Below, in pieces: positions 1-16,320 of a stretch of DNA of 64,000 nt. Both the position numbers and the translations under genes were made by a program. A model generated the notes under the pieces. It was not told where the DNA came from. It worked only from the letters and a program-made list of their open reading frames with translations, and ran no database searches. Within the stretch, counting starts at the first letter, position 1; each line of letters starts with the position of its first letter. Source of the DNA: Bacillota bacterium (GTDB lineage Bacteria; Bacillota; Halanaerobiia; B1SED10-174); contig SKTZ01000029.1 in NCBI GenBank assembly GCA_007122335.1, positions 5,593 through 69,592 of the forward strand, in the 5' to 3' direction.

Positions 1-243
1 GGAAGTGTTAATAATATTCAGTTCGGCTCCCCTGAGTATCCATAAATTTTCAACTTCCGGGGGGATCTGTAACATTGCTCCCATTAAATAATGGTGGGGA
101 CCCCCGGGAATGGAAGGACCATGTTCGGTAATTCCCAGGACCGAGAGGCCTGCTTTTTGGGCTGCGAAAACATTTTCCTGCACCGTACTGAAACCATGCC
201 CGCAGGCAACAGTATGGGTATGCAAATCAGCAATCAATTTCAA
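1..243 (-). CDS. PHP-domain phosphoesterase, YcdX-like (5' part only; the gene runs off the window start)
   Basis: Reverse-strand translation from TTG 243 reads MKLIADLHTHTVACGHGFSTVQENVFAAQKAGLSVLGITEHGPSIPGGPHHY... This carries the DLHxHT and ITxHGP metal-ligand motifs of YcdX-type PHP phosphatases. AGGTGG lies 5 nt upstream. The frame is open to position 1, so it is absent from the ORF track because it runs off the edge. Confidence 0.65.
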   Translation of the reverse strand, partial: MKLIADLHTHTVACGHGFSTVQENVFAAQKAGLSVLGITEHGPSIPGGPHHYLMGAMLQIPPEVENLWILRGAELNIINTS

Positions 244-394
244 TTTTCCCACCTACTCATTATTTATTATTAAGAAACTTCGCGGAGAAAGAATTTGCTC
301 CTGCTTGAAAAAAGCTAGGGCAGGGTCTGGGGAAGGAAAATTGATTTTTTTAGAGAAGAAGAACTTAATTAAAGTGGTAAAGGGGGTAATTTAT

Positions 395-844
395 TTGAAT
401 TTGGAAGAGAAACTTGCACCAGAATTTTCTTTGCCTGGAACGGATGGTAAGGACCACAGCCTGGAAGATTACAGGGGTAAGAAGATTGTTCTTTACTTTT
501 ACCCCAAAGATAATACCGGGGGCTGAACCAAAGAAGCCATCTCTTTTAGGGATCGGCATCAGGCTCTGGAAGAGCTTAATACCGTAGTACTGGGAGTTAG
601 CAAGGATGGAATGGCTTCTCACCACAGGTTTAGGGATAAATATGACCTACCATTTGTTTTGCTTTCTGATACCGAAAAAGAGGTCCTCCAACGGTACGGG
701 GTTTTAAATGAAAAAGGAGGGACTGTGCGCAGCACTTTTGTAATTGATGAAGAGGGTCTGGTAATTAAAGAATACAGGAAGGTTAAGGTCGAAGGGCATG
801 CCGAAGAAGTTTTAAATTTAATTCGAGATCAGAAGAAGTTTTAA
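395..844 (+). CDS. bcp: Peroxiredoxin (Bcp/PrxQ type) with selenocysteine: in-frame UGA at 524-526 at the peroxidatic Cys position
   Basis: Track ORFs 110..526 and 611..844 are in the same frame and separated only by TGA 524-526. The joined product reads ...VLYFYPKDNTGG[U]TKEAISFRD...LPFVLLSDTEKEVLQRYGV...FVIDEEGLV. This aligns to the Bcp motif YFYPKxxTPGCTxEA with the TGA exactly at the catalytic Cys. Probable start is TTG 395, with AGGGGG 8 nt upstream. Confidence 0.8.
536..557 (+). promoter_or_regulatory. Candidate SECIS-like hairpin downstream of the peroxiredoxin UGA
   Basis: GCCAUC-UCUUUUAGG-GAU(C)GGC is an imperfect 6-bp stem with one bulge, starting 10 nt after the UGA. It is weak and found by eye only. 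Confidence 0.25.
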
Positions 845-871
845 AAGGATAATTTATTTAATCAGAAAAAT

Positions 872-1225
872 ATGGGAGTTGATTTTTTGGGAAGAAAGGC
901 AATTTTTTGCACCGGGGATAAGCTGGGAAGAGGAGAGGAAGAACTGGGGAAAACACTGCTTCGCAATTTCTTTTATTCAATTGGGGAGGGAGATAACCAT
1001 CCCGATGCCGTTATTTTTATGAACAAAGGTGTTTACCTGGCCCAGGAAACATCAGAAATTGCCCTTTCACTGAAAAAGCTAGCCCAAAAGGGGGTTAAAA
1101 TCCTGGCATGCGGGACCTGCCTGGATTATTATGGGTTGAAGGATAAACCTCTAATTGGTGAGGTTTCCAATATGCATAGTATTACTGATATCCTGGGAGA
1201 ATCGGAACAGGTGGTGACAATCTGA
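872..1225 (+). CDS. DsrE-like domain protein resembling the C-terminal domain of the sulfurtransferase-like selenium metabolism protein YedF
   Basis: GDKLGRGEEELGKTLLRNFFYSI...IFMNKGVYL...KGVKILACGTCLDYYGLKD matches the conserved YedF-family C-terminal signature (GxGxEELG, CGTCLDYYGL). No TusA-like N-terminal CPxP domain is present. It lies 27 nt after the Sec-peroxiredoxin. Confidence 0.6.
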   Translation: MGVDFLGRKAIFCTGDKLGRGEEELGKTLLRNFFYSIGEGDNHPDAVIFMNKGVYLAQETSEIALSLKKLAQKGVKILACGTCLDYYGLKDKPLIGEVSNMHSITDILGESEQVVTI

Positions 1226-1470
1226 TGATCTGGATTATTGTTCTTGTAATTATCGTAATCCTTGCCCTGGTGTTTTTTTCTCCAGCTCAGAAGGAAAAAA
1301 GGAAACACGGTCAAATAAAAAAGCAGATCCAGAGAAAAATGAGAGTAAGTGAAGAGCGAGCAGATGAATACATTCGGGATATGAAGGGGAGGCTTAAGAA
1401 AAAATACCCCGGAAAAAGTGATCAGTGGTATCTTGAAAAAATTTTGTCTGACCTGGAAAGAGGAAGATAA
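1225..1470 (+). CDS. Small membrane-anchored hypothetical protein (N-terminal TM helix, basic cytoplasmic tail)
   Basis: The ATG overlaps the upstream stop (ATGA). MIWIIVLVIIVILALVFF is a TM helix. No recognisable family. Confidence 0.5.
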   Translation: MIWIIVLVIIVILALVFFSPAQKEKRKHGQIKKQIQRKMRVSEERADEYIRDMKGRLKKKYPGKSDQWYLEKILSDLERGR

Positions 1471-1493
1471 CCCACCTGCGGGTGGGTTTTTTT
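1471..1493 (+). terminator. Rho-independent terminator
   Basis: CCCACC-TGCG-GGTGGG followed by TTTTTTT, immediately after the stop at 1470. Confidence 0.85.
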
Positions 1494-1548
1494 ATGAAAT
1501 AAGAAGGGAAAATTTTCCATAAATAGAAATTAATTTAGAGGTGGTTCA

Positions 1549-4209
1549 ATGGACAAGAACCTGATTTTTACAATCCTGCAGAGCACTCCATCCCGGTATT
1601 TCCGGGCTGACTGGCAGAAAAATTTTCAACTCCTGTTTTTAAGGGTTTTAAAAGAAAAAAACCTTGTTCTGGATAAACTAAATGGGCTGTTGCTAGAGGG
1701 GAGTAAAGATTTATTGGAACTCGAGGCTGTCCTGGGAAAGCTATCGGGGAAAAACCCAAAGGAAAGAACAATTCTTTCAGGACAAGGTAGCGGGGCAGGA
1801 AATAAAAGGCATAAAGAAACTGTGATCATTGGTGCTCCCCGGCCCGAGGCAGATTTTTTTGAATTAAAGCCCGAACTCCTGGTTTTTTCACATGTTCCAA
1901 TTGCTCAGAAGAGGTTGATGCTGGAAAAAGGGTACGGGGAAATTTTCCAGGCAGGCACCAAAAATCTTCAAGTCCGTTTCTTTTTACGTAAGGATTTTTG
2001 GGGGAAGGTTTTCCTCCCCGAATTTGGGGGGATAACAACTTTCTTTCCGAAAAAAGCATTGTTAGAAGAACTTGCAAAGAGAATTTGGGGTTTCCCTGAT
2101 TTGAAGCCAGAGCAGTACCGCTTAATCAAACAGATTTTCCAAAAAAGAAAGGCTCTGGGTATTTTGCCAACCGGAGCGGGCAAATCAATCTGTTTTCAAC
2201 TTCCAGCCCTTTTATTCTCCGGCACATCTATTGTTGTGGCTCCTCTTAAGTCTTTAATCCAGGACCAGGTTACTAACTTACAAAAGGAAGGAAGGGGCTT
2301 TTGGGCCGATTTTTTAGATAGTTCGCAAAACCCGGCAGAAAAAAAGCGAGTTTTACATAGGTGGATGAATGGAGAATTAAAAATTCTTTACCTTGCCCCG
2401 GAAAGGCTTCAGCAGAAAAAATTCCAGGAATTATTAAAAAGAAGGGGGAGAAAAAGGCAGGGTTTTTTTGTCATTGACGAAATCCACTGTGTTTCTGAGT
2501 GGGGACATGACTTTCGTCCCGCTTATCTCCAGCTGGCTAATAGCCCTTTGCAAAAAAATAACCGCGGTTTGATTGGGTTAACTGCCACTGCTCCAGGTCG
2601 CGTCCGACAGGAACTGAAAAATTTTTTTTGTTTTAATAATTGTGATGTAATTGAAACAGATGAAATGGACCGGCCTGAAATCGGTTTGCAGGTTAAGTTG
2701 ATAAAAGAGGGCCAGGAAAGGTTTCAGGTTTTAAAGGATATCCTGGAAAATAATCTGCCAGAATTTTTTGGAATTGATCGGGAAAAGTTTTCCAGGAAAA
2801 ATGCGGGTGTTATCTTTGTACCTTATGCCCAGGCAGAAGGAAAAACCACCCGGCAGGCGAGTACAAAAACTCTTAAAACCCGCCTTGAAGACGAAGGTCA
2901 TGAAGTATTGTCCTACCACGGGAAACTGGGTGAAATGGAGAAAAAAGTAGTTCAGGCAAACTTTTTAAAAAATAAGGTTTCCCTCCTTGTTGCTACAAGA
3001 GCTTTTGGTATGGGAATTGATAAGCCCGATATTAATTACACCATCCACTATTATGCTCCTGGGTCTTTGGAAGCATATTTTCAGGAACTGGGGCGGGCAG
3101 GAAGGGGTGGACAGAAATCCCTCTCTGTTCTCCTGTATAAACCAAGGCAAAAAAAATGCAGGGCGGAACAGAGGAGAAAGGGGGAATTGGAACCTTCTTG
3201 TTTGGGAAAATGGAAATGTAATTATAAAGAGGGGGAGCTTTGTGATTATGGAATTCAGTCCCGTTTCATTGAAAAACAGCATCCCTTACCCGGGGGCCAA
3301 AAGGGGCTATTTGATCAACTTTTGAGAGAAATTTATAAAAAAAGGGGAAAAAAGATTGAGCTTTCTATAGATATTTCGGACCAGGTTTTTATCCAGAAAT
3401 ACCTTTTCTTTCTTCAGGAAACAAAAATAATTGGTGATTATAATATTGTCTACTTTGAAGATGAAAGGTTAAACTTTCAGGTTGAAAAAAAGTTTACATC
3501 CTCCCCCGGGGAAAATGAATCCTTGTTTGCTGAGTATATTAAACAGGACCTAATCATAAAAAAACGCAGATATGCAGCCCTGGGTATACTGGAAAAATAT
3601 GTTTTGGAAAAAGAAAACTGCCGCAGGTCAATTCTTTTGGATTACATGGGCCAGGCCATTCAACCCGGCGCGAGGTGCGGTTTTTGCGATTTGGAAACCT
3701 TGAATACCAAGCGGGCCAGGTCGATTAAGGCCAGGGAATCAGGAGAGAGATTAGAAGCTGGGTTGGGTGTTTTTCTTGAAAAGGAGGACCTTCCTGTGGA
3801 AAGGATAGTTGAGGTTATTAAAAAGATCGAAGAATATGGGCAGCAAAAAAAGATTCGACCAATTGCAGAAAAAAAATTAAATGAAGATCCGTTTAATATC
3901 CCGGCTCTATTTATAGCGGGTTTGCTTGATTTTAAAAAGGAGGGGGAAATTGAGCTTTTACTTGAATGTATATCAGGTTTACAAAAAAGAGGGGATAATT
4001 TAGCAGTAATCAGTGTACTAAGCCATTTATTCGCCCACGATGAAGCTCTGGCGATCAGGGTGGTTGAAAAAACGAAAAACCGAAACTGGCTAGCTGTCTG
4101 CGGTTTTTTTATTAGCGATAAAAAAAACCGGAAAAAGTTTTCCCTGCTGTGTTTGAATAACTGGGGGAGGGAATTATTATTTTCCCTGGAGGGAAAGAAA
4201 CTTGGATGA
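1549..4209 (+). CDS. recQ: RecQ-family ATP-dependent DNA helicase with about 200-aa N-terminal and long C-terminal extensions
   Basis: Walker A LPTGAGKSICFQLPAL, DEIH box with CVSEWGHDFRPAY, motifs LTATA, GMGIDKPD and QELGRAGRGG, and a Zn-finger-like CRRSILLDYMG...CGFCD. GAGGTGG RBS upstream. Confidence 0.85.
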   Translation: MDKNLIFTILQSTPSRYFRADWQKNFQLLFLRVLKEKNLVLDKLNGLLLEGSKDLLELEAVLGKLSGKNPKERTILSGQGSGAGNKRHKETVIIGAPRPEADFFELKPELLVFSHVPIAQKRLMLEKGYGEIFQAGTKNLQVRFFLRKDFWGKVFLPEFGGITTFFPKKALLEELAKRIWGFPDLKPEQYRLIKQIFQKRKALGILPTGAGKSICFQLPALLFSGTSIVVAPLKSLIQDQVTNLQKEGRGFWADFLDSSQNPAEKKRVLHRWMNGELKILYLAPERLQQKKFQELLKRRGRKRQGFFVIDEIHCVSEWGHDFRPAYLQLANSPLQKNNRGLIGLTATAPGRVRQELKNFFCFNNCDVIETDEMDRPEIGLQVKLIKEGQERFQVLKDILENNLPEFFGIDREKFSRKNAGVIFVPYAQAEGKTTRQASTKTLKTRLEDEGHEVLSYHGKLGEMEKKVVQANFLKNKVSLLVATRAFGMGIDKPDINYTIHYYAPGSLEAYFQELGRAGRGGQKSLSVLLYKPRQKKCRAEQRRKGELEPSCLGKWKCNYKEGELCDYGIQSRFIEKQHPLPGGQKGLFDQLLREIYKKRGKKIELSIDISDQVFIQKYLFFLQETKIIGDYNIVYFEDERLNFQVEKKFTSSPGENESLFAEYIKQDLIIKKRRYAALGILEKYVLEKENCRRSILLDYMGQAIQPGARCGFCDLETLNTKRARSIKARESGERLEAGLGVFLEKEDLPVERIVEVIKKIEEYGQQKKIRPIAEKKLNEDPFNIPALFIAGLLDFKKEGEIELLLECISGLQKRGDNLAVISVLSHLFAHDEALAIRVVEKTKNRNWLAVCGFFISDKKNRKKFSLLCLNNWGRELLFSLEGKKLG

Positions 4210-4504
4210 ATTAAAGAATTTACAGGAAGAATTTAGAGAAGTACTTGAAGAAATAAGGGAGAAAATCAAAAAATGGGATGGGAATTTCATTGAACTGGAA
4301 GAGTTGAAAATAAACCTTCAAAAGGATTTGGAGCAGGTGTCAAAGGAAAAAAAGGGAAGTAATAAAGAAACAATAGAAGGGTTTTATTTGCTAAAAAAGA
4401 GGCTGGAAAAACAGGAAAAAATTGTGCATGGATTGCAAAAAAGATGGGAGGTCATTCTTTTTTTTCAGCTTGTTCTTTTAATTGCCCTTATCTTTTTACT
4501 TTAA
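4202..4504 (+). CDS. Tail-anchored coiled-coil protein (hypothetical)
   Basis: The TTG start overlaps the recQ stop. The sequence is rich in heptad-like E/K/L repeats and ends in a hydrophobic helix ILFFQLVLLIALIFLL. No family recognised; start uncertain. Confidence 0.4.
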   Translation: MDELKNLQEEFREVLEEIREKIKKWDGNFIELEELKINLQKDLEQVSKEKKGSNKETIEGFYLLKKRLEKQEKIVHGLQKRWEVILFFQLVLLIALIFLL

Positions 4505-4529
4505 AATTTTCAGGAAGGATCGATTGTTA

Positions 4530-5717
4530 ATGTTGAGGAAAAGCCTGCTTTTGAAAATTTTTGATGGAGCTTACATGCAGAGGTGGAATGATAAGCTTCG
4601 ACCGATGGAGTTAATTGAACTCGATAAACAGGCCCATAAAATGGTCGTTGCCTATTTCCTCGGGCAATTTTCTGAAGATAATCATGATTTCGACTGGATG
4701 GAATTAATTGAAGGAGGAATTTTTGATCTTTGCCAGCGCCTTGTTATTACTGATATAAAACCACCTGTTTTTTATAAAATCCGAGAAGATCGAGAAAAAT
4801 ACCGCAGGCTAAATGAATTCGTTATCCGGGAGATGGAAACCTACCTTACTCCTCTTGGAGACGACTTTTTTGACCGGTTTAAAAATTACCTTTTTAGAAA
4901 GGAAAATAATTCTACTCATAGAGTTTTAGAGGCTGCTCACAATTATGCATCTCGCTGGGAATTTTCCTTAATTGAAAACCTCAATCCTCAGGGCTTTGAA
5001 ATAGAGGAAATTAAGAAGAATTTCCGAGAGAGGTTAGAGAAATTTGCGGATTTACCGGGGATGATTGCCCTGGAAGAAAATGCGTCTTTTCGATCTTTTA
5101 TTGACCTCTGTGGCCATCTGAGATTTCAGGCTCGCTGGTCTCATTTGCACCGGGTTCCCAAAACCTCCGTTCTCGGTCATTCTCTTTTTGTTGCAATTTT
5201 AGCCTACCTTTTGACCATGGAAATTGGAGGTTGTGTACAGCGCCGCTACAACAATTTTTTTACCGGGCTTTTTCATGACCTGCCTGAGGTCTTAACAAGG
5301 GACATTATTTCGCCGATAAAAAAATCGATTGAGGGCCTTGATGATTTGATAAAAGAAATTGAGGTTGAGCAAATGGAAAAGGATGTGTACCCATTATTAC
5401 CAGAAGAATTGGTTCCCGAGCTTAAAATGTTTACCCAGGATGAATTTTCCAACCTTGTGACAGTTGAGGGCAAGCCAAAAAAGGTAAACACGGCCCAGGA
5501 AATCAGCCAATTTTTTAATGAGGCTTCCTTTAACCCCAGGGATGGAGAATTACTTCGGGCTATTGATCGACTTGCTGCCTTTATTGAAGCCCGGGTTGCC
5601 CTGGAAAATGGAGGGGTTAGCGCCGAATTTCAGGAAGCAGCTATTTCCATTAAAAAAAGTTATTCAAACCAAAAAATCGCCGGAATTAATTTTGGCGAGA
5701 TCTTCGCGGATTTTTAA
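4530..5717 (+). CDS. HD-domain phosphohydrolase (YfbR / 5'-deoxynucleotidase-like, apparent tandem arrangement)
   Basis: The N-terminal MQRWNDKLRP...LDKQAHKM and a second RFQARWSHLHR...SVLGHSL...GLFHDLPEVLTRD give the H...HD motif of the YfbR-like HD_3 family. I chose the ATG at 4530 over 4482 to avoid overlap with the upstream TM tail. Confidence 0.65.
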   Translation: MLRKSLLLKIFDGAYMQRWNDKLRPMELIELDKQAHKMVVAYFLGQFSEDNHDFDWMELIEGGIFDLCQRLVITDIKPPVFYKIREDREKYRRLNEFVIREMETYLTPLGDDFFDRFKNYLFRKENNSTHRVLEAAHNYASRWEFSLIENLNPQGFEIEEIKKNFRERLEKFADLPGMIALEENASFRSFIDLCGHLRFQARWSHLHRVPKTSVLGHSLFVAILAYLLTMEIGGCVQRRYNNFFTGLFHDLPEVLTRDIISPIKKSIEGLDDLIKEIEVEQMEKDVYPLLPEELVPELKMFTQDEFSNLVTVEGKPKKVNTAQEISQFFNEASFNPRDGELLRAIDRLAAFIEARVALENGGVSAEFQEAAISIKKSYSNQKIAGINFGEIFADF

Positions 5718-5718
5718 A

Positions 5719-6258
5719 ATGAAAATTTTATTGGTCTATCGGGAGCAAAAACTGGGAGAAGAATTCAATAATAAGTTTTCCTGCGAGACCGGGGTTAAAA
5801 TCTTAAAAGGGGATATTTGCAGTTTGGTTTGCGATGCAATTGCGAGTCCTGGCAATTCTAAGGGAGATATGGGGGGAGGGCTTGATCTGGCTGTTCGGAA
5901 AAGATTGGGGCCGGGAATTGAAGATAAACTAAAGGCAAAAATAAACTCGAGGTTTGCGGGGAGAATTCCAGTGGGAGAAGCTGTTGTTCTACCTACGGGA
6001 GATCCCCTTATTCCCTGGTTTATTTCCGCTCCGACAATGGTTGAGCCCGGGGATATTCGGGGAACCAGAAATGCTGAAAAAGCAATGCTGGCGATTTTGG
6101 GGGAAGCTAAAAAGAATGGGGAAATAAAAAAAATAGCCATCCCCGGACTGGGAACCGGTGTTGGAGGTTTGTCGGCAAAAGGGGCTGTTAGCCAGATGTG
6201 GTCCGGTTATAAAAAATTTAAAAGTTTTGGGGGAGAAAAAAATGCGAATCAGATCTAA
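5719..6258 (+). CDS. Macro-domain (ADP-ribose binding/hydrolase) protein
   Basis: GDICSLVCDAIASPGNSKGDMGGGLDLAV and IAIPGLGTGVGGL match macro-domain motifs (DAIVNxxN, GGGhD, GxGxxG). ATG 5719 lies 1 nt after the HD gene stop. The track ORF start at 5518 is an upstream extension overlapping the HD gene. Confidence 0.7.
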   Translation: MKILLVYREQKLGEEFNNKFSCETGVKILKGDICSLVCDAIASPGNSKGDMGGGLDLAVRKRLGPGIEDKLKAKINSRFAGRIPVGEAVVLPTGDPLIPWFISAPTMVEPGDIRGTRNAEKAMLAILGEAKKNGEIKKIAIPGLGTGVGGLSAKGAVSQMWSGYKKFKSFGGEKNANQI

Positions 6259-7522
6259 AGCAGCCCGGGTTTTAATGGTCCTGTTCTTTTTTGTTATGAT
6301 TTTCTGCGTATTATCTGAAAACCAGGTCCTGGCCCAGAAGGCGGGAGTTTTGAGTTTTGAGGGAAGACTTCATTCCCGTTATCTTGATCTGGCCGGGAAT
6401 AAACTGGTTGTGATCCTGCTTGACCTGGGGCGTTTGGACCTGGTTAAACCCCGGGAAATGGATAGAATTTTGCAGGATTTTGGGATCCGGTATTACCGGG
6501 ATCTTCAGGCTGAAGAAGTAAAAATGATTGGTGAAAGAGCAGGCATCGACCTTTTATTCGCCGGTTTTATTGAAAACCTTGAGGTTTACTGGGACTCAAA
6601 TCAGAGGCGTTATAAAGCGGAAGTAGAAATAACTGTTAGAATATACAATACTATTTCCGGTGGAGTCATCAGGATTATTAACCAGAGAGGGTCGGCTTCT
6701 CACGGGAATCGTGAAGATGCCCAATTTCAGGCGCTGGAGAATTGTTTTTCCTCGAATTTTATTCGCCAACTTAGGGAAGAATTTTTACTAACCAGCACAA
6801 TAAAAGAAATTGAAAACGATGAGATTTACTTTTTTGGGGGTAGAGATTTAGGAGTTAAAATCGGTTCCCGGTATCAAATCCTGCAAAAGGTGGCAGGGAC
6901 AACCCAGTACAAACAAATTGGTCTCCTGGAAGTAATTAGTGTTGAAAATGATTTTTCCAGGGGCAAAGTTTTATATGCGAGGGAACCTCTGCAGCATGAT
7001 TACTTACTGGAAGAAATGGTTTCCAAATCCAGGTTTAAGTTAAATCTTGGTTACAGTAACATGCCTTTTAAGATGGATGGTAGTTCGGGCCGGTTAAATA
7101 TCCCGGGAATTAGAGTTGGTAACGAGGTTCCTTTCTCCCATTCCAGCAAGGTGCTATTGGAATTTGCCGGAGGAGGAGGGGCATTTATTTTTGATATTGG
7201 CGGAGTTCATGTCCGGGAATTTCCCATAACTCCCGGTAGTTTTTATGGTACGCTTGGAGGTAGTGCAGGTTTTTCCATGGGTATGGTGGAAGGCTGTGGG
7301 GAGGTTCTTGGTTCAGCAGGGATTTTTGGAGAATTACTTGCCGGAGTTAAATACTATCCCCGCCAGGAGCACGGAATGACCTTTTCCCTCGAAGGAGTTG
7401 GTCGTCTGGCTACACCCCTAACGCGCTGGCAGGATATAAATGAGGGGAATGTCTCACCTTGTGGTCCCAACTTGAGAACTTCAGGTTTGGGAATCCGAAT
7501 TTCAGTGGGTTTAGGGTTCTGA
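6242..7522 (+). CDS. Exported protein: signal peptide, CsgG/LpoB-like N-terminal region and Gly-rich beta-rich C-terminal domain ending in Phe
   Basis: MRIRSKAARVLMVLFFFVMIFCVLSENQVLAQ is a signal peptide. The C-terminus ...SGLGIRISVGLGF resembles an outer-membrane beta-barrel terminal strand. The start overlaps the macro gene by 17 nt. Confidence 0.55.
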   Translation: MRIRSKAARVLMVLFFFVMIFCVLSENQVLAQKAGVLSFEGRLHSRYLDLAGNKLVVILLDLGRLDLVKPREMDRILQDFGIRYYRDLQAEEVKMIGERAGIDLLFAGFIENLEVYWDSNQRRYKAEVEITVRIYNTISGGVIRIINQRGSASHGNREDAQFQALENCFSSNFIRQLREEFLLTSTIKEIENDEIYFFGGRDLGVKIGSRYQILQKVAGTTQYKQIGLLEVISVENDFSRGKVLYAREPLQHDYLLEEMVSKSRFKLNLGYSNMPFKMDGSSGRLNIPGIRVGNEVPFSHSSKVLLEFAGGGGAFIFDIGGVHVREFPITPGSFYGTLGGSAGFSMGMVEGCGEVLGSAGIFGELLAGVKYYPRQEHGMTFSLEGVGRLATPLTRWQDINEGNVSPCGPNLRTSGLGIRISVGLGF

Positions 7523-7593
7523 AATAGAGGGATTTTAGGAATTGAGTAGAAAAAATTAAGATAGAGAAAGTTTTACTTAAAGGAGGAAATGTT

Positions 7594-8628
7594 TTGTCCA
7601 AACTGCTCGGTCCTCTTACAATAAAAGGTCTTGAACTGCCCAATAAGGTGGTCATGGCTCCGATGTGCATGTACTGTGCTGGAGAAGAAGGACTTGTAAC
7701 TGACTGGCATCTTGCCCACTACGCTGCGCGAGCCATAGGTGGGGTGGGACTAATCATCCAGGAAGCTACTGCAGTTGAAAAAAGGGGAAGGCTGAGTCCC
7801 AACGACCTGGGAATATGGGATGATGACCAGATAAAAGGATTGAAAAAACTGGTTGACCTCGTCCATGAATTTGGGAGCAAAGCTGGAATTCAACTGGGGC
7901 ACGGAGGGAGAAAAGCCCGCCCTGGTAAAGGAGAAATAATTGGGCCAAGTAGCATTGCTTTTTCCGAGGACCATCAGGTTCCCAGGGAGATGGAAGAAAA
8001 AGAAATTAAAGAAGTTGTAAATGCTTTCAAAAAAGCCGCAGAAAGGGCCTGTGCTGCAGGCTATGATATTATCGAGTTGCACGGAGCCCACGGCTATCTT
8101 ATTCACCAGTTTCTTTCCCCTTATTCTAACCAGCGGCAGGATGATTATGGAGGAAGTTTGGATAATCTGCTGCGCTTTCCACTGGAAATAATTCAGGAAG
8201 TAAAAAAAATTTTGCCTTCCGATAAACTTTTAATGTTAAGGATTTCAGCAGTTGAGTATATCCAACAGGGCTATTCCTTTAATGATATGGTAAAAGCCGC
8301 TAAAATTTTCGCTGAGGTGGGAATAGATATCCTCGATGTGAGCACAGGTGGAGCAGGTCCTTCAGCACCCCGGACCTGGCCTGGGTTTCAGGTTCCCTAT
8401 GCCCAAAAAATCAGAGAGGAACTGAATGTTCCGGTTATAGCCTGTGGTCTTATAACCGATCCGGGAATGGCTGAAGAATTGGTTAGTAACAACCGGACCG
8501 ACCTTGTGGCCTTAGGCAGGGCACTTTTGCGTGATCCCAACTGGGTTCTAAATGCAGCTCGGGAACTTGGTATTCCTGGAAAAATTCCTTGGTCCTATGC
8601 TCGTGCCTATCCCGAGGATGTTAGATAA
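7594..8628 (+). CDS. namA: NADPH dehydrogenase / NADH:flavin oxidoreductase, Old Yellow Enzyme family (YqjM/NamA-like)
   Basis: LELPNKVVMAPMCMY...DWHLAHYAARAIGGVGLII, HGAHGYLIHQFLSP and LVALGRALLRDPNW. TTG start with AGGAGG 7 nt upstream. Confidence 0.85.
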   Translation: MSKLLGPLTIKGLELPNKVVMAPMCMYCAGEEGLVTDWHLAHYAARAIGGVGLIIQEATAVEKRGRLSPNDLGIWDDDQIKGLKKLVDLVHEFGSKAGIQLGHGGRKARPGKGEIIGPSSIAFSEDHQVPREMEEKEIKEVVNAFKKAAERACAAGYDIIELHGAHGYLIHQFLSPYSNQRQDDYGGSLDNLLRFPLEIIQEVKKILPSDKLLMLRISAVEYIQQGYSFNDMVKAAKIFAEVGIDILDVSTGGAGPSAPRTWPGFQVPYAQKIREELNVPVIACGLITDPGMAEELVSNNRTDLVALGRALLRDPNWVLNAARELGIPGKIPWSYARAYPEDVR

Positions 8629-8650
8629 AACATAAAAAAGGAGGGGGAGT

Positions 8651-8854
8651 ATGGAATTCAGAAAAATTTTGATGATTATTCTTGGGGTCATTTTTTTAAT
8701 TGTCCTTGTCCAGAATTTCCAAGCAATTACCGTTGAATTTCTTTTTTGGGAAATAGAGATTCCCCAGATAATTGTGCTGTTTCTTTCAGCTCTGCTGGGC
8801 TTTATTATCTGCTACATATGGCTGCATATAAGGGGACGAAGGCGAAGGATTTAA
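8651..8854 (+). CDS. Small two-TM membrane protein, LapA-domain (DUF1049)-like
   Basis: Two hydrophobic helices, the LFWEIEIP motif and a basic C-terminal RGRRRRI. GGAGGGGG RBS. Confidence 0.5.
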   Translation: MEFRKILMIILGVIFLIVLVQNFQAITVEFLFWEIEIPQIIVLFLSALLGFIICYIWLHIRGRRRRI

Positions 8855-8916
8855 ATTATCTTATTCTTTAGTTTTTTATGTCTTTGATTATAAGTACGTC
8901 CGGAAGGAGGTTTGGG

Positions 8917-9471
8917 ATGGGCAAGATAGATATTGGGGCAAAAATTTTGCAGTACCGCAGGCAAAGGGGCTTTACCATAAAAGAACTGGCTAAAAAAACA
9001 AAACTAACTTCATCAATGTTAAGCCAGATTGAGAGAGGCAATGCCAATCCATCAATTAATTCACTGCGGATTATCGCCAAAGCGCTGGATATTCCCCTAG
9101 TTAATTTTTTTGAGGATGAAGACAATGTTGAAAACCTTGTAGTAAGAGCAAAACAAAGAAAAAAATTAATGATGCCCTGTAATCAGGGATTTGTATATGA
9201 ATCCCTTTCCCCCAATTTAAGCGGAAAAATTCAAATGGTTCTTTTAAGATTAAATCCCGGAGAAGAGACTACAGAAACAATGATGAGTCATGAAGGGGAA
9301 GAAGCCGCGATAGTCCTTGATGGGAAAATTAAAATTTACCTTGAAGACGGTGTTTTTGAACTTGATAGAGGCGATAGCATCAGGATACCTCCCGGAAAAC
9401 CCCATAAATGGGAGAATATTGATACTGCGGTTGTAACAGTAATTTTTGCTATTTCTCCACCGTCATTTTAA
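8917..9471 (+). CDS. XRE-family transcriptional regulator with C-terminal cupin domain
   Basis: HTH IGAKILQYRRQRGFTIKELAKKTKLTSSMLSQIERGNANPSINSL, and cupin HEGEEAAIVLDGKIKI...GDSIRIPPGKPHKWEN. GGAGG RBS before ATG 8917. Confidence 0.85.
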   Translation: MGKIDIGAKILQYRRQRGFTIKELAKKTKLTSSMLSQIERGNANPSINSLRIIAKALDIPLVNFFEDEDNVENLVVRAKQRKKLMMPCNQGFVYESLSPNLSGKIQMVLLRLNPGEETTETMMSHEGEEAAIVLDGKIKIYLEDGVFELDRGDSIRIPPGKPHKWENIDTAVVTVIFAISPPSF

Positions 9472-9482
9472 TTTTGTCAACG

Positions 9483-9516
9483 GCCCTTGTTCAAGGACAG
9501 GGGCTTTCTTTTTTTG
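9483..9516 (+). terminator. Rho-independent terminator
   Basis: GCCCTTGT-TCAAGG-ACAGGGGC (8 bp including one G-U pair) followed by TTTCTTTTTTT. Confidence 0.7.
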
Positions 9517-9621
9517 CCACAGGAAAAAAAGAGGGGTTTTGGATTAATTGTTTAATAAATTAAATCAAATTAATTATTTTGGACTTAGCGGGAAAATAAA
9601 TTTCTGGCAAGGAGGGTTTAT

Positions 9622-10716
9622 GTGAAAATTAAAGAAGTTCGGGTTGGATACCTTAATTTGGAATTAAAAGAACCCTTTACAATCTCTCTGGGTACTGTAA
9701 CTGAGGCCAAAAATGTGGTGGTTGAAATTGAGACAGATCAAGGGCACCTGGGTTGGGGAGAAGCCGCCCCCATGCCGATTGTAACTGGTGATTTCCAGGA
9801 ATCGGTTGTGCGGGGAATTTTACAATTTCTCCGCCCCCTAATTATAGGGGAGGATCCCAGGGGAATTTCCCGGATTTCGGAGATGCTGGATAAGGTTCTT
9901 TTCGGGAATCCCGGGGCCAAAATTGCTGTTGAGATGGCTCTTTTTGACCTGCTGGGAAAAATTTATGGTCTGCCCCTTTATATCCTCTGGGGTGGCCATG
10001 ACAATTCTTTTGAAAGCGATTATACCATTGGGATTGATGAGCCGGAAGTAATGGCCGCAAAAGTTGACCCTCTTCTGGAGAGAGGATACCGGGCGCTAAA
10101 GGTTAAGGTTGGAAAAAACGGAAAAGAAGATGTGAAAAGGATTGCTGCAGTTGCGGCTGCTGTCGCAGGGAGAGCTTTGATCCGCCTGGATGCCAACCAG
10201 GGTTGGGGAGTTAAGGAAGCTGTGAACACTATCCGGGAGATGGAAAAATTTAATGTTGAACTGGTTGAAGAACCAATTCCCCGGGGCAATATAGAGGGGC
10301 TGGCTTTTATCCGAAACCGGGTAAATGTCCCGATAATGGCAGATGAAACTGTTTTTTCTCCCCAGGATGCTTTAAAGGTTATCAAAGCCGAAGCAGTTGA
10401 TTTAATCAACATCAAGCTGATGAAAGCCGGAGGCTTGATTGCGGCGAGAAAGATTGATGCCCTGGCTTCAACTGCAGGTGTTGAATGTATGGTTGGTTGT
10501 ATGATTGAAAGCAGACTTGCAATGACTGCTGCTGCAAACCTTGTAGCAAGTTCGTCCAATATTACCCGGGCTGATCTTGATGCTCCCGGGTTTTTACGCT
10601 CAGATCCTATCATCGGTGGCGCGGAGGTTAAAGGTGGTTTGTGCACCCTGCCTGATAAGCCTGGCCTGGGTCTGGAACTTAAGAGACAGGAGGTTAAATT
10701 TGTTGATAATGCCTAA
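9622..10716 (+). CDS. Dipeptide epimerase (L-Ala-D/L-Glu epimerase-like), enolase superfamily
   Basis: GWGEAAP, KVKVG, RLDANQGW, VELVEEP, IMADE and DLINIKLMKAGG are typical of the MLE-subgroup dipeptide epimerases (YkfB/YcjG-like). GTG start with AAGGAGGG RBS. Confidence 0.75.
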   Translation: MKIKEVRVGYLNLELKEPFTISLGTVTEAKNVVVEIETDQGHLGWGEAAPMPIVTGDFQESVVRGILQFLRPLIIGEDPRGISRISEMLDKVLFGNPGAKIAVEMALFDLLGKIYGLPLYILWGGHDNSFESDYTIGIDEPEVMAAKVDPLLERGYRALKVKVGKNGKEDVKRIAAVAAAVAGRALIRLDANQGWGVKEAVNTIREMEKFNVELVEEPIPRGNIEGLAFIRNRVNVPIMADETVFSPQDALKVIKAEAVDLINIKLMKAGGLIAARKIDALASTAGVECMVGCMIESRLAMTAAANLVASSSNITRADLDAPGFLRSDPIIGGAEVKGGLCTLPDKPGLGLELKRQEVKFVDNA

Positions 10717-14547: not shown

Positions 14548-16320
14548 TTGAGTGGCAATAAGAACCGCAATAGAAAACGACACCACTGTGGTCAAAAACC
14601 GGAAAAGTTCAAACCAGGTGAAAAATCAATTCTTTTAATCGGTCCGCCAAACGTGGGTAAAAGCGTTTTCTTCAATTATTTTACGGGTCTTGAAGCCAGT
14701 GTGGGAAATTATGCGGGGACAACCGTTGAATTTTCCCGGGGCCGGATGGCCATCAGAGGGTTTCAATATGACCTGATTGATGTGCCTGGGACCTACACCC
14801 TTGATGCCACCAATCCTGCAGAAAAAGTAGCCGTGGATATGTTAAAGCAGCGGCCTGCAGGAATTGTCTGTGTCCTGGATGCCAATAGCCTTGAAAGCGG
14901 TCTGTACCTGTTGTATCAGGTTCTGGAATTTAAACTCCCTACAGTGGTTGCTATCAACCGGTCTGACCTGGCCCGCGAAAGGGGATATTTAACAGATTTT
15001 AATACCCTGGAAAGCGAACTGGGAATACCCGTAATCGAAACGGTTGCTTTAACCAGTCAGGGGCTGGAAGCTGTCCGAGAAAAAATTTTTTCGGCCCCGG
15101 TTTCAAGCGAGCCTCTGCCGGAAGTTAGTTCTCAACGCTGGGAACGGGCAGAAAAGATAGCGGGAAAAGCCCAAAAAATTAAAACTAGCAGGTCCGGGGA
15201 AACCAAAAGGCAAAAACTGGACCCCTGGTTAACAAATCCCTGGCCGGGTTTACCCCTTGCAGTTTTAATTTTATCCTTTATTTTTGCCATTATTATTGGT
15301 CTGGGAATGGGTCTCCGGCAATATATTCTCTTGCCTTTTTTCCGGGGGCTGGTTTTTCCTCCCCTTATTCAAGGGGTGGAGGGGATAATTCCTCCCGGAA
15401 TTATTCGGGATATTTTAATTGGAGAGTATGGATTCTTGATTAAAGGGCTGGAATGGCCTCTGGCTCTCGTTTTTCCCTATGTTCTCTCTTTTTATTTTGC
15501 CTTAAGTGTTTTGGAGGATAGTGGATATCTTCCTCGGTTTGGAATTTTGTTGGATGGAATAATGGCAAAAATTGGTCTACGTGGTTCAAACATTATCCCG
15601 CTTCTCCTTGGTTATGGTTGTGCAATACCGGGAATACTGGGAACAAGGGCCCTGGAATCAAAAAAGGAACGGATCATGATTTCCACAATGATTTCTCTCG
15701 CCGTTCCCTGTATTTCTCAATCCGGGGCATTTTTTGCCCTTTTAGCCGAAGTTTCTATCCTTGTTGTGCTGGCTCTTTTTGCTTTCTCCATTCTGGCAAT
15801 GTTTGTTGCTGGCCTGGTCATGGACCGCCTGCTCCCGGGGAAAAGAATGGATACAGTCCTGGAAATTCCAGAATTATTATTTCCCCGGCCCCGCTTCCTC
15901 GGGAGAAAAGTTTTGATGAGGATCAAGGGTTACATTTTTAATGGGGCTGTTCCAATGGTAATGGCGGTGGGAATTGCTTCCCTCTTTTATGAAACTGGAA
16001 TCCTTGTTTTCGTTGGGAGAATTCTCAGTCCCCTGATCGAACAATGGCTACGCCTGCCTCAGGAGGCCGCAGTTCCCCTGGTTTTAGGGATTGTTCGCAG
16101 GGAACTTGCCGTTTTGCCCCTGGTTGAAATGGGTTTATCGCAGACCCAGTTGTTGGTTGGGGCAATTGTAGCCCTGTTTTATGTGCCCTGTATTGCAGTC
16201 CTTGCAACCCTTGCCCGGGAATTCAACCTTAAAATAGCTGCCCTGATCCTACTCGTAACAGTAGCAACTGCTTTTTTAACCGGAGGCCTTTTGGCCAGAA
16301 TTTTGGAATTGATATTTTAA
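14548..16320 (+). CDS. feoB: Ferrous iron transport protein B
   Basis: N-terminal G domain (GPPNVGKS, DVPGTY, AINRSD) followed by a polytopic gate/nucleoside-recognition membrane domain. The TTG start lies 2 nt after the upstream stop. Confidence 0.9.
   Translation: MSGNKNRNRKRHHCGQKPEKFKPGEKSILLIGPPNVGKSVFFNYFTGLEASVGNYAGTTVEFSRGRMAIRGFQYDLIDVPGTYTLDATNPAEKVAVDMLKQRPAGIVCVLDANSLESGLYLLYQVLEFKLPTVVAINRSDLARERGYLTDFNTLESELGIPVIETVALTSQGLEAVREKIFSAPVSSEPLPEVSSQRWERAEKIAGKAQKIKTSRSGETKRQKLDPWLTNPWPGLPLAVLILSFIFAIIIGLGMGLRQYILLPFFRGLVFPPLIQGVEGIIPPGIIRDILIGEYGFLIKGLEWPLALVFPYVLSFYFALSVLEDSGYLPRFGILLDGIMAKIGLRGSNIIPLLLGYGCAIPGILGTRALESKKERIMISTMISLAVPCISQSGAFFALLAEVSILVVLALFAFSILAMFVAGLVMDRLLPGKRMDTVLEIPELLFPRPRFLGRKVLMRIKGYIFNGAVPMVMAVGIASLFYETGILVFVGRILSPLIEQWLRLPQEAAVPLVLGIVRRELAVLPLVEMGLSQTQLLVGAIVALFYVPCIAVLATLAREFNLKIAALILLVTVATAFLTGGLLARILELIF

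Follow-up and report, generated by a model that had tools for sequence, protein, structure and literature searches.

A Cys4 RecQ-like helicase and a tail-anchored coiled-coil protein, probably a membrane-tethered pair, within a Halobacteroidaceae gene string

The stretch of DNA analysed here, 64,000 nucleotides of contig SKTZ01000029.1 (positions 5,593 to 69,592 of the forward strand) from the Bacillota bacterium assembly GCA_007122335.1 and referred to below as the window, carries five co-directional open reading frames (ORFs) on the plus strand between positions 1549 and 7522, with the overlaps that an original prediction, made from the sequence alone, had reported. The domain identities assigned in that prediction were recovered with Pfam, NCBIfam and PADLOC models: DEAD, Helicase_C and a weak RecQ_Zn_bind match in the helicase, YfbR-like/HD_3 in the HD protein, and Macro in the macro protein. 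The prediction had gone on to combine all five genes into one system reminiscent of nucleic-acid surveillance, reversal of ADP-ribosylation or anti-phage activity. A smaller unit emerged from the present analysis, in which only the first two genes, encoding a RecQ-like helicase and a tail-anchored coiled-coil protein of 100 residues (cc100), are an evolutionarily conserved functional pair. The five genes are as follows.

1549–4209, plus strand: RecQ-like helicase gene, 886 aa
4202–4504, plus strand: coiled-coil protein cc100 gene, 100 aa, TTG start, with GGAGGG 8 nt upstream
4530–5717, plus strand: HD gene, 395 aa from ATG 4530 (alternative listed ORF start, TTG 4482)
5719–6258, plus strand: macro gene, 179 aa
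6242–7522, plus strand: gene for an exported outer-membrane protein (OMP), 426 aa

The helicase stop and the cc100 start overlap by 8 nt, the HD stop lies 1 nt from the macro start, and the macro and OMP genes overlap by 17 nt. The gap between cc100 and the HD gene is 25 nt when counted to ATG 4530, the start used by gene callers and the one that gives the family-typical length of 395 aa.

Motifs I (PTGAGKS), II (DEIH), III (TATA) and VI (QELGRAGR) of the helicase are intact, and its score of 281.8 bits against TIGR00614 recQ_fam (cut-off 219.8) places it in the RecQ family, with Pfam matches to DEAD (86.5 bits) and Helicase_C (68.8 bits). It shares with RecQ and RecS proteins, such as E. coli RecQ (1oyw) and D. 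radiodurans RecQ (4q47), the superfamily 2 motifs I, II (DEIH), III and VI and the CRR...CxxCD zinc motif. RecQ cores are its top matches in the Protein Data Bank (PDB) by sequence and by fold, and align to residues 175–530 and 680–731. An AlphaFold2 (AF2) model (predicted local distance difference test, pLDDT, 82.5; predicted template-modelling score, pTM, 0.79) and the aligned motifs divide the protein, encoded on the plus strand, into the following parts.

Residues 1–150: alpha/beta N-domain (AF2 model)
Residues 175–536, nt 2071–3156: helicase core
nt 3157–3258: Cys4 insertion, C537/C551/C557/C565-D-x-G-x-Q (DYGIQ), invariant in alignment A4
Between the Cys4 insertion and the zinc motif: winged-helix-like (WH-like) and helical segment of about 100 residues, with helices and a winged-helix-like beta element in the AF2 model
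nt 3619–3690: RecQ zinc motif CRR...CxxCD, C691...C710xxC713-D
Residues 731–885, nt 3739–4203: nine-helix all-alpha repeat domain (AF2 model)

The earlier suspicion that this is no ordinary RecQ or RecS was well founded. Scores against the housekeeping RecQ equivalogs fall far below their cut-offs (314 vs 640 bits for TIGR01389, 238 vs 1015 bits for NF008279), and only model positions 3–334 are matched. Unlike RecQ, the protein has approximately 140 aa, including the Cys4 cluster and the WH-like element, inserted between Helicase_C and the zinc motif; it lacks the fourth zinc cysteine, CRR...CxxCD being present, and reaches 22.9 bits against PF16124 RecQ_Zn_bind (gathering threshold 25); it lacks an HRDC domain, with no Pfam match to either RQC or HRDC; and it has in addition the alpha/beta N-domain, the all-alpha C-domain and a dedicated tail-anchored partner gene. 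Residues 1–175 and 531–679 drew no Pfam match at E≤5, and a Foldseek search with the full model returned RecQ catalytic cores only, which is uninformative on the extra domains. Of the two extensions originally described, the non-HRDC C-terminal one stands, with some 350 residues after Helicase_C, and the N-terminal one, put at about 200 residues in the prediction, comes to about 170.

The helicase belongs to a small and sharply delimited RecQ subfamily, which has an invariant Cys4 insertion, a RecQ-type zinc motif and no HRDC. The regular expression C..C..C..CD[YF]GxQ matched exactly the top 48 of the 120 listed helicase hits and 0/72 of the others, and the columns of the four cysteines and of D-[YF]-G-x-Q, directly after Helicase_C, are invariant in alignment A4. 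It is probable that the insertion forms a second zinc site. The nearest relatives in genome collections are labelled Halobacteroidaceae bacterium, and full-length homologs of the helicase were found only in that same family (P0121–P0125). The N-domain lines up with the S-adenosylmethionine-motif region of a methyltransferase fused to relatives of about 1150 aa (MAFFT, hhalign; E 0.017, probability 2.6%), a weak alignment from which descent of the domain from a degenerate methyltransferase is only a suggestion.

The partner, cc100, has a highly charged, helical N-terminal portion of approximately 80 residues (45% E/K/R/D/Q overall) and a single C-terminal transmembrane (TM) helix at residues 83–100 (nt 4448–4501; best 18-residue Kyte–Doolittle window, KD18, 2.87). 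The original prediction had suspected that the membrane component matters, and a tail-anchored gene does recur beside helicases of the subfamily. Across four Halobacteroidaceae lineages, at 30–73% identity, cc100 is unchanged in length and start position and retains its C-terminal TM helix, and the 8-nt overlap with the helicase is kept in the three lineages read (the window, L007 and L008). All longer subfamily members examined (10/10, comprising six distant members and the four Halobacteroidaceae lineages) have a downstream tail-anchored coiled-coil gene. In the six distant members (P0153, P0141, P0138, P0152, P0151 and P0145; 33–37% helicase identity) the downstream partners are 161–260 aa long. 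Taken together the partners span 100–260 aa, overlap the helicase stop or start ≤47 nt away, contain 36–47% E/K/R/D/Q, are predicted to be helical, and have their sole strongly hydrophobic segment 0–2 residues from the C-terminus. Only 1/1146 crude genes from the window and 78 unrelated loci (<0.1%) answers to this description, and that one is cc100 itself.

Members of the subfamily of about 600 aa show the complementary arrangement. A hydrophobic C-terminal tail is fused to the helicase in 5/5 of them (best 17-residue window, KD17, 1.5–2.6), compared with 0/43 longer members; the all-alpha C-terminal domain is absent from all five; and no tail-anchored downstream gene was found at the two short-member loci fetched (L094 and L131). 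The presence of either a downstream anchor gene or a fused tail in the members examined indicates that the conserved unit is a membrane-tethered helicase, in trans or in cis, and this complementarity is the strongest argument for a tethered helicase with cc100 as its partner. The same observations bear on the notion that the adjacency is meaningless, with cc100 either a small membrane protein that has nothing to do with the helicase or not a genuine gene. Its TTG start, its lack of a Pfam, NCBIfam or PADLOC family (one weak PADLOC match, to DruC, E 0.0089) and the want of demonstrable homology between partners of different lineages would all fit such a notion, but the ORF length, start and TM helix are kept in four lineages at 30–73% identity, a like architecture stands beside six distant relatives where the background rate is <0.1%, and the short forms have the complementary fused tail; we regard it as highly improbable.

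The overall explanation that we favour, with a probability of roughly 60%, is that of a membrane-tethered helicase–cc100 pair followed by independent neighbours. In such a pair cc100, translationally coupled to the helicase through the 8-nt overlap, would insert tail-first into the cytoplasmic membrane, and its cytoplasmic coiled coil would bind the helicase, probably at the all-alpha C-domain (residues 731–885), a contact suggested by the presence of that domain only in members with a separate partner. The ATP-driven 3′–5′ RecQ-type helicase would thereby be kept against the cytoplasmic side of the membrane, and the members of about 600 aa would reach the same tethering in cis through the fused hydrophobic tail.

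Several points weigh against this explanation. Both the helicase–cc100 interaction and the membrane localisation are inferred. The neighbourhoods cover 6 of approximately 38 longer subfamily members outside the family, and the partners of different lineages share an architecture without demonstrable sequence homology. The cc100–HD, HD–macro and macro–OMP junctions are also tight, and are kept in all four family lineages. What is known of co-occurrence with the macro gene comes from searches anchored on HD, helicase and OMP, since a macro-anchored metagenome scan (three-sequence alignment, family-specific patterns) gave only five loci, all from soda lakes and of the same lineage. Finally, the terminator and promoter scans drawn on below are consensus matches only.

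Comparison with described systems placed the pair close to, and outside, two of them. PsyrTA and RqlHI resemble it in layout, each being a two-gene operon of a RecQ-like helicase with a close or overlapping downstream partner, and the PADLOC PsyrT model matches residues 173–754 of the helicase. In RqlH/PsyrT the partner RqlI is bound by a C-terminal phosphoribosyltransferase (PRTase) domain (PMC4670107). Membership was rejected, as the helicase gave no PRTase match and cc100 no PsyrA/RqlI match, cc100 being instead a tail-anchored coiled coil. DpdF, of the Dpd 7-deazaguanine system, provided the best PADLOC hits (E 3e-99), covering only the RecQ-like core at 172–536; Dpd membership was likewise rejected, on a score of 157 vs 550 bits for NF041063 and with no dpdA/B/C-like genes within 10 kb either side. 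No complete defence system of PADLOC-DB 2.0 was recovered, the matches consisting of generic helicase models and a weak DarG. PADLOC 2.0 holds no specific model for the partner, and partners match, at most weakly, generic coiled-coil models (LmuB, JetC, ZorA, DruC). The literature searched contained no description of a membrane- or tail-anchored bacterial RecQ-like helicase, an absence that is not proof of novelty, and for DUF1848 with a helicase and for DpdF-I it yielded nothing relevant apart from RqlHI/PsyrTA. The proposed module is recognised by a Cys4-CD[YF]GxQ insertion behind Helicase_C together with one of two anchors, a tail-anchored coiled-coil gene downstream or a hydrophobic C-terminal tail on the helicase, and the window locus combines C537/C551/C557/C565-DYGIQ, the 8-nt cc100 overlap and an 18-residue terminal hydrophobic segment.

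The surroundings of the relatives point in two directions as to what a tethered helicase would act upon. Methyltransferase- and nuclease-fused forms occur in integrase-rich or viral contigs, near DUF1848 and HNH-helicase genes, which suggests defence; repair is suggested by the short forms, whose neighbours encode a DinG-like helicase and a metallophosphoesterase. We incline, tentatively and at somewhat less than even odds, to a role in surveying or processing DNA, foreign or incoming, at the membrane or entering through it, and regard membrane-proximal housekeeping repair as the main alternative, somewhat less likely.

Fusions of a methyltransferase to a Cys4 RecQ, of about 1150 aa, were found at L087–L090 (L087 gene 7001–10465) and at L130 (5001–10212); downstream of them come a gene for a tail-anchored coiled-coil protein of 255–260 aa and one for a DUF1848 protein. 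The L087 element also bears three tandem integrases and Phage_rep_O/IstB genes, and the L130 fusion adjoins an HNH-helicase matching the PADLOC PbeA models. The set of methyltransferase–RecQ(Cys4), coiled-coil and DUF1848 genes may be a mobile defence cassette. At L094 (3316–9723) and L131 (310–6725) the genes encode a DinG-like helicase (about 790 aa), a 360-aa unknown protein, a 603-aa tailed Cys4 RecQ and a metallophosphoesterase, and this DinG–Cys4 RecQ–metallophosphoesterase cluster is kept between Alkalibacter rhizosphaerae and an unrelated assembly.

A scan of IMG/VR found none of the Cys4 subfamily. Large RecQ-like helicases (1150–1740 aa) on IMG/VR contigs nonetheless had a downstream coiled-coil gene bearing a C-terminal TM helix in 6/7 cases, compared with 0/10 small ordinary RecQ loci on IMG/VR, the intended negative control. 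At L109, L111, L112/L113, L118, L119 and L122 the helicases are 1214–1737 aa and the partner, of 135–283 aa, lies ≤12 nt downstream; at L110 the coiled-coil partner has no TM helix. One large IMG/VR helicase carries HAD and DUF559 endonuclease domains and has a near full-length PADLOC ‘DpdF’ match. L105 was rejected as a Cys4 member, being a RecS-like gene adjoining dnaN/recF.

Such relatives lend some colour to the idea that the pair is itself a chromosomally resident module of anti-phage or anti-mobile-DNA defence, of a new system type, in which the tethered helicase senses or unwinds injected DNA. Its supports are the methyltransferase-fused branch in integrase-rich elements, beside DUF1848 (PADLOC ‘RTasDUF1848’) and a PbeA-like HNH helicase; the large RecQ-like helicases with a nuclease domain (DUF559) and tail-anchored partners on IMG/VR contigs; the weak alignment of the alpha/beta N-domain with the methyltransferase region of relatives; and the rate of divergence, the helicase and cc100 being the fastest-evolving genes of their block, as comparison with the most distant lineage shows (identity of 41% for the helicase and 30% for cc100, against 71% for the HD protein, 63% for a flanking old yellow enzyme (OYE)-type protein and 61% for the bcp product), a divergence that counts towards the explanation favoured above as well. 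The setting of the locus speaks otherwise. No integrase, transposase or known defence gene lies within 10 kb either side, and the synteny of the locus is stable in four lineages. Among chromosomal relatives, P0138 and P0152 lie between CoA-transferase and methionyl-tRNA synthetase genes, and P0161 and P0165 adjoin a DinG-like helicase in a repair-like context. The PADLOC matches fall mainly in the generic RecQ region (DpdF in the core only; PsyrT at residues 173–754), and tblastn with the subfamily-specific half found nothing in PLSDB plasmids or INPHARED phages. Like several of its relatives, the window locus is a stable chromosomal resident. We consider a defence module here unlikely. Still more doubtful is the broader proposition that helicase and tail-anchored coiled coil constitute an undescribed, widespread two-gene module tethering a DNA helicase to the cytoplasmic membrane in trans or in cis, where it would work on DNA located at the membrane or passing across it, and of which the mobile methyltransferase- or nuclease-fused versions serve anti-phage or anti-plasmid defence, the Halobacteroidaceae copy has been domesticated, and HD and macro are possible lineage-specific accessories. 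Membrane-tethered RecQ-like helicases, if confirmed, would direct attention to a DNA transaction at the membrane, whether concerned with incoming DNA, defence or segregation-linked repair.

As to the three genes downstream of the helicase–cc100 pair, the HD, macro and outer-membrane proteins are independent functions, neighbours only within Halobacteroidaceae. The neighbourhoods of the HD gene were compared at its 80 best-matching genome loci, with 10-kb flanks. Helicase, coiled-coil, macro and exported-protein genes accompany it in only 2/80, both Halobacteroidaceae; at 78/78 loci outside that family there are no helicase, coiled-coil or OMP genes, and 1/78 has a weak macro match, 4 kb away. 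Clustering of all flanking ORFs revealed no conserved neighbour common to more than 9/80 loci, and the HD gene is therefore a stand-alone gene. From the helicase side, no HD or macro genes were found nearby at the seven distant relatives looked up, the surroundings of which are wholly different. From the OMP side, no macro gene adjoins the relatives at the three loci looked up, which adjoin genes of envelope type instead (SpoIID/TPR, glycosyltransferase, FlgT_N-like). The claim that helicase, HD, macro and exported protein act as one system is thus unsupported, their homologs not being co-located outside the family.

Synteny gave a divided answer, homologs being scattered outside Halobacteroidaceae and the five genes syntenic inside it, as are five flanking genes. 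The order bcp–DsrE–81aa–helicase–cc–HD–macro–OMP–OYE–LapA is collinear as a ten-gene block in four Halobacteroidaceae lineages, and since the flanking bcp, DsrE, 81-aa, OYE and LapA genes are as syntenic as the rest, synteny within the family says nothing specific about the five genes; it is vertical inheritance of local order. Nor is their tight spacing unusual in the window, where a crude gene call puts 56% of same-strand junctions at ≤25 nt and shows overlaps in 28%. The features that delimit the likely transcription unit are these.

1469–1488, plus strand: intrinsic terminator, an 8-bp GC-rich hairpin and T run, ending the upstream unit bcp–DsrE–81aa
7594–8628, plus strand: OYE-type NADH:flavin oxidoreductase gene (Pfam)
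8651–8854, plus strand: LapA-domain membrane protein gene (Pfam)
8878/8917–9471, plus strand: helix-turn-helix (HTH)-cupin regulator gene (Pfam)
9482–9505, plus strand: strong intrinsic terminator after the HTH-cupin gene (terminator scan)

The scan found no terminator in the interval from 7522 to the start of the OYE gene at 7594. Strong terminators stand only at 1469–1488 and 9482–9505, bracketing eight genes from helicase to HTH-cupin. In a second species (L007) the hairpin of 1469–1488 recurs at the same site with its loop changed, and terminators at 6938–6957 and 14957–14976 bracket the same eight genes, with none between. This bracketing in two species makes it likely that the transcription unit is larger than five genes, and we infer that the eight genes from the 1488 terminator to the 9482 terminator may be co-transcribed. 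Of the ‘five-gene operon’ the tight junctions hold, therefore, and the boundary at 7522 does not, the terminator-bounded unit having eight genes. The region is a leading-strand string of genes rather than a five-component system.

One might still see in the five or the eight genes a functional operon specific to the lineage, with the HD and macro proteins serving the tethered helicase, for example by clearing the nucleotide or ADP-ribose products of DNA surveillance. The junctions, tight or overlapping, are kept in four lineages whose identity has fallen to 41% for the helicase and 71% for HD; no internal terminator was found; and a Metallophos phosphohydrolase follows the helicase in two relatives of about 600 aa, a loose parallel to HD. 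Set against these are the equal synteny of the flanking bcp, DsrE, OYE and LapA genes, the 56% of same-strand window junctions that are ≤25 nt, the stand-alone HD gene in 78/78 loci of other phyla and the seven helicase relatives with no HD or macro gene nearby. Moreover, the OMP belongs to the envelope, as do the products of the genes around its relatives, and the PADLOC models match neither HD nor OMP and the macro protein only weakly, as DarG. We judge such an operon improbable. A five-gene surveillance system is unsupported, and ought not to be passed on as a candidate operon for defence or repair.

The HD protein scores 84 bits against PF12917 YfbR-like (gathering threshold 25.9) and also matches PF13023. 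Its C-terminal half (nt 5100–5714) keeps R202-W203, H217, H249-D250, E253, D258 and D346, metal and substrate residues that are invariant in 20 diverse members (alignment A1) and align to E. coli YfbR 5′-deoxynucleotidase (2paq), with which it shares the R-W, H, HD, E, D and D residues. Unlike YfbR, it is a 395-aa tandem with a second, degenerate N-terminal domain (nt 4530–5099), in which H36...Q69-R70 replaces H...HD. Duplication is supported by the match of the N-terminal half alone to PF12917 (E 2.4e-4) and by motif inspection; hhalign of one half against the other gave no significant signal (probability 0.2%). The YfbR equivalog NF003009, a single-domain family of about 200 aa, was rejected at 55.1 vs 122 bits. 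The protein is a probable (deoxy)nucleotide monophosphatase in which one domain is active and the other degenerate. The YfbR structure is dimeric, and by analogy the tandem plausibly mimics the YfbR dimer.

This tandem YfbR-like family is very widespread, highly conserved and uncharacterised. It comprises more than 5850 homologous clusters, nearly all of 395 aa (a few of 389–410), at 50–63% identity across phyla (Planctomycetota, Nitrospirota, Desulfobacterota, Chloroflexota, Bacillota and, among archaea, Methanofastidiosum/Methanocellales), with at least 585 matching stretches in GTDB species-representative genomes. Among the best 80 loci there were only two Halobacteroidaceae and no other Halanaerobiales genus, and the nearest relatives outside the family are approximately 61–63% identical, which suggests horizontal acquisition.

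The macro protein (PF01661, 55.3 bits vs 22) has an N-x6-GGG-L-D motif (NSKGDMGGGLD) and a GTGVGG loop, its closest structure being Thermus TTHA0132 (PDB 2dx6, E 1.2e-10). It is a stand-alone MacroD-like protein, predicted to bind or hydrolyse ADP-ribose. Membership of DarTG was rejected, NF048014 scoring 21.3 vs 250 bits and PADLOC DarG giving E 1.5e-5, with no DarT-candidate ORF on either strand.

That the fifth gene product is exported and rich in beta structure was correctly foreseen; it belongs to the envelope of a diderm Firmicute rather than to nucleic-acid metabolism. Its modules, encoded on the plus strand and without a Pfam match, are as follows.

N-terminus: signal peptide
Residues ~32–185: CsgG/PelC/LpoB-like periplasmic domain
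Residues ~186–260: FlgT_C-like beta domain
Residues 264–426, nt 7031–7519: 8-stranded outer-membrane beta-barrel, ending in GLGF

It is an OmpA-like outer-membrane barrel protein, consistent with a diderm Firmicute. Barrels of the OmpA/NspA type with eight strands and domains of the CsgG/PelC/LpoB type are both known, and here the two are joined in one chain through a FlgT_C-like linker. The family is restricted, with 6 close clusters, to which a profile search added about 24 full-length distant relatives. Downstream of one distant relative, at L097 (6001–9399), lie genes for a FlgT_N-like protein, an unknown protein and a TPR protein, an arrangement that hints at a place for the CsgG/FlgT-like-plus-barrel family in some envelope-associated assembly.

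The wider setting of the locus is unremarkable in gene content. Genes called in the 10 kb upstream encode acetyl-CoA carboxylase subunits, a sigma factor, a P-type ATPase, an inositol monophosphatase, a PHP protein, a Bcp peroxiredoxin and a DsrE-like protein, and those in the 10 kb downstream the OYE flavin reductase, LapA-domain protein, HTH-cupin regulator, an MR/MLE enzyme and a beta-lactamase-fold protein. Rfam gave no match over positions 1–10000. The identical helicase sequence is present on two metagenome-assembled genomes from soda-lake sediment (GCA_003554285.1 and GCA_007126785.1) and in JGI, ENA and Logan soda-lake assemblies. Over positions 3500–5000, which take in the 3′ end of the helicase gene, cc100 and the 5′ end of the HD gene, the GC fraction is 0.37–0.40, compared with 0.41–0.46 in the flanking sequence.

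The Bcp-type peroxiredoxin gene (392–844, plus strand) is a single frame with an in-frame TGA at 524–526, at the position of the peroxidatic cysteine (FYPKDNTGG*TKEA); in every assembly the gene callers give two separate AhpC-TSA fragments instead. Downstream of the TGA, a search for a selenocysteine insertion sequence (SECIS) fold gave an unconvincing hairpin (z −1.6) and no Rfam match. The bcp product may be a selenocysteine peroxiredoxin.

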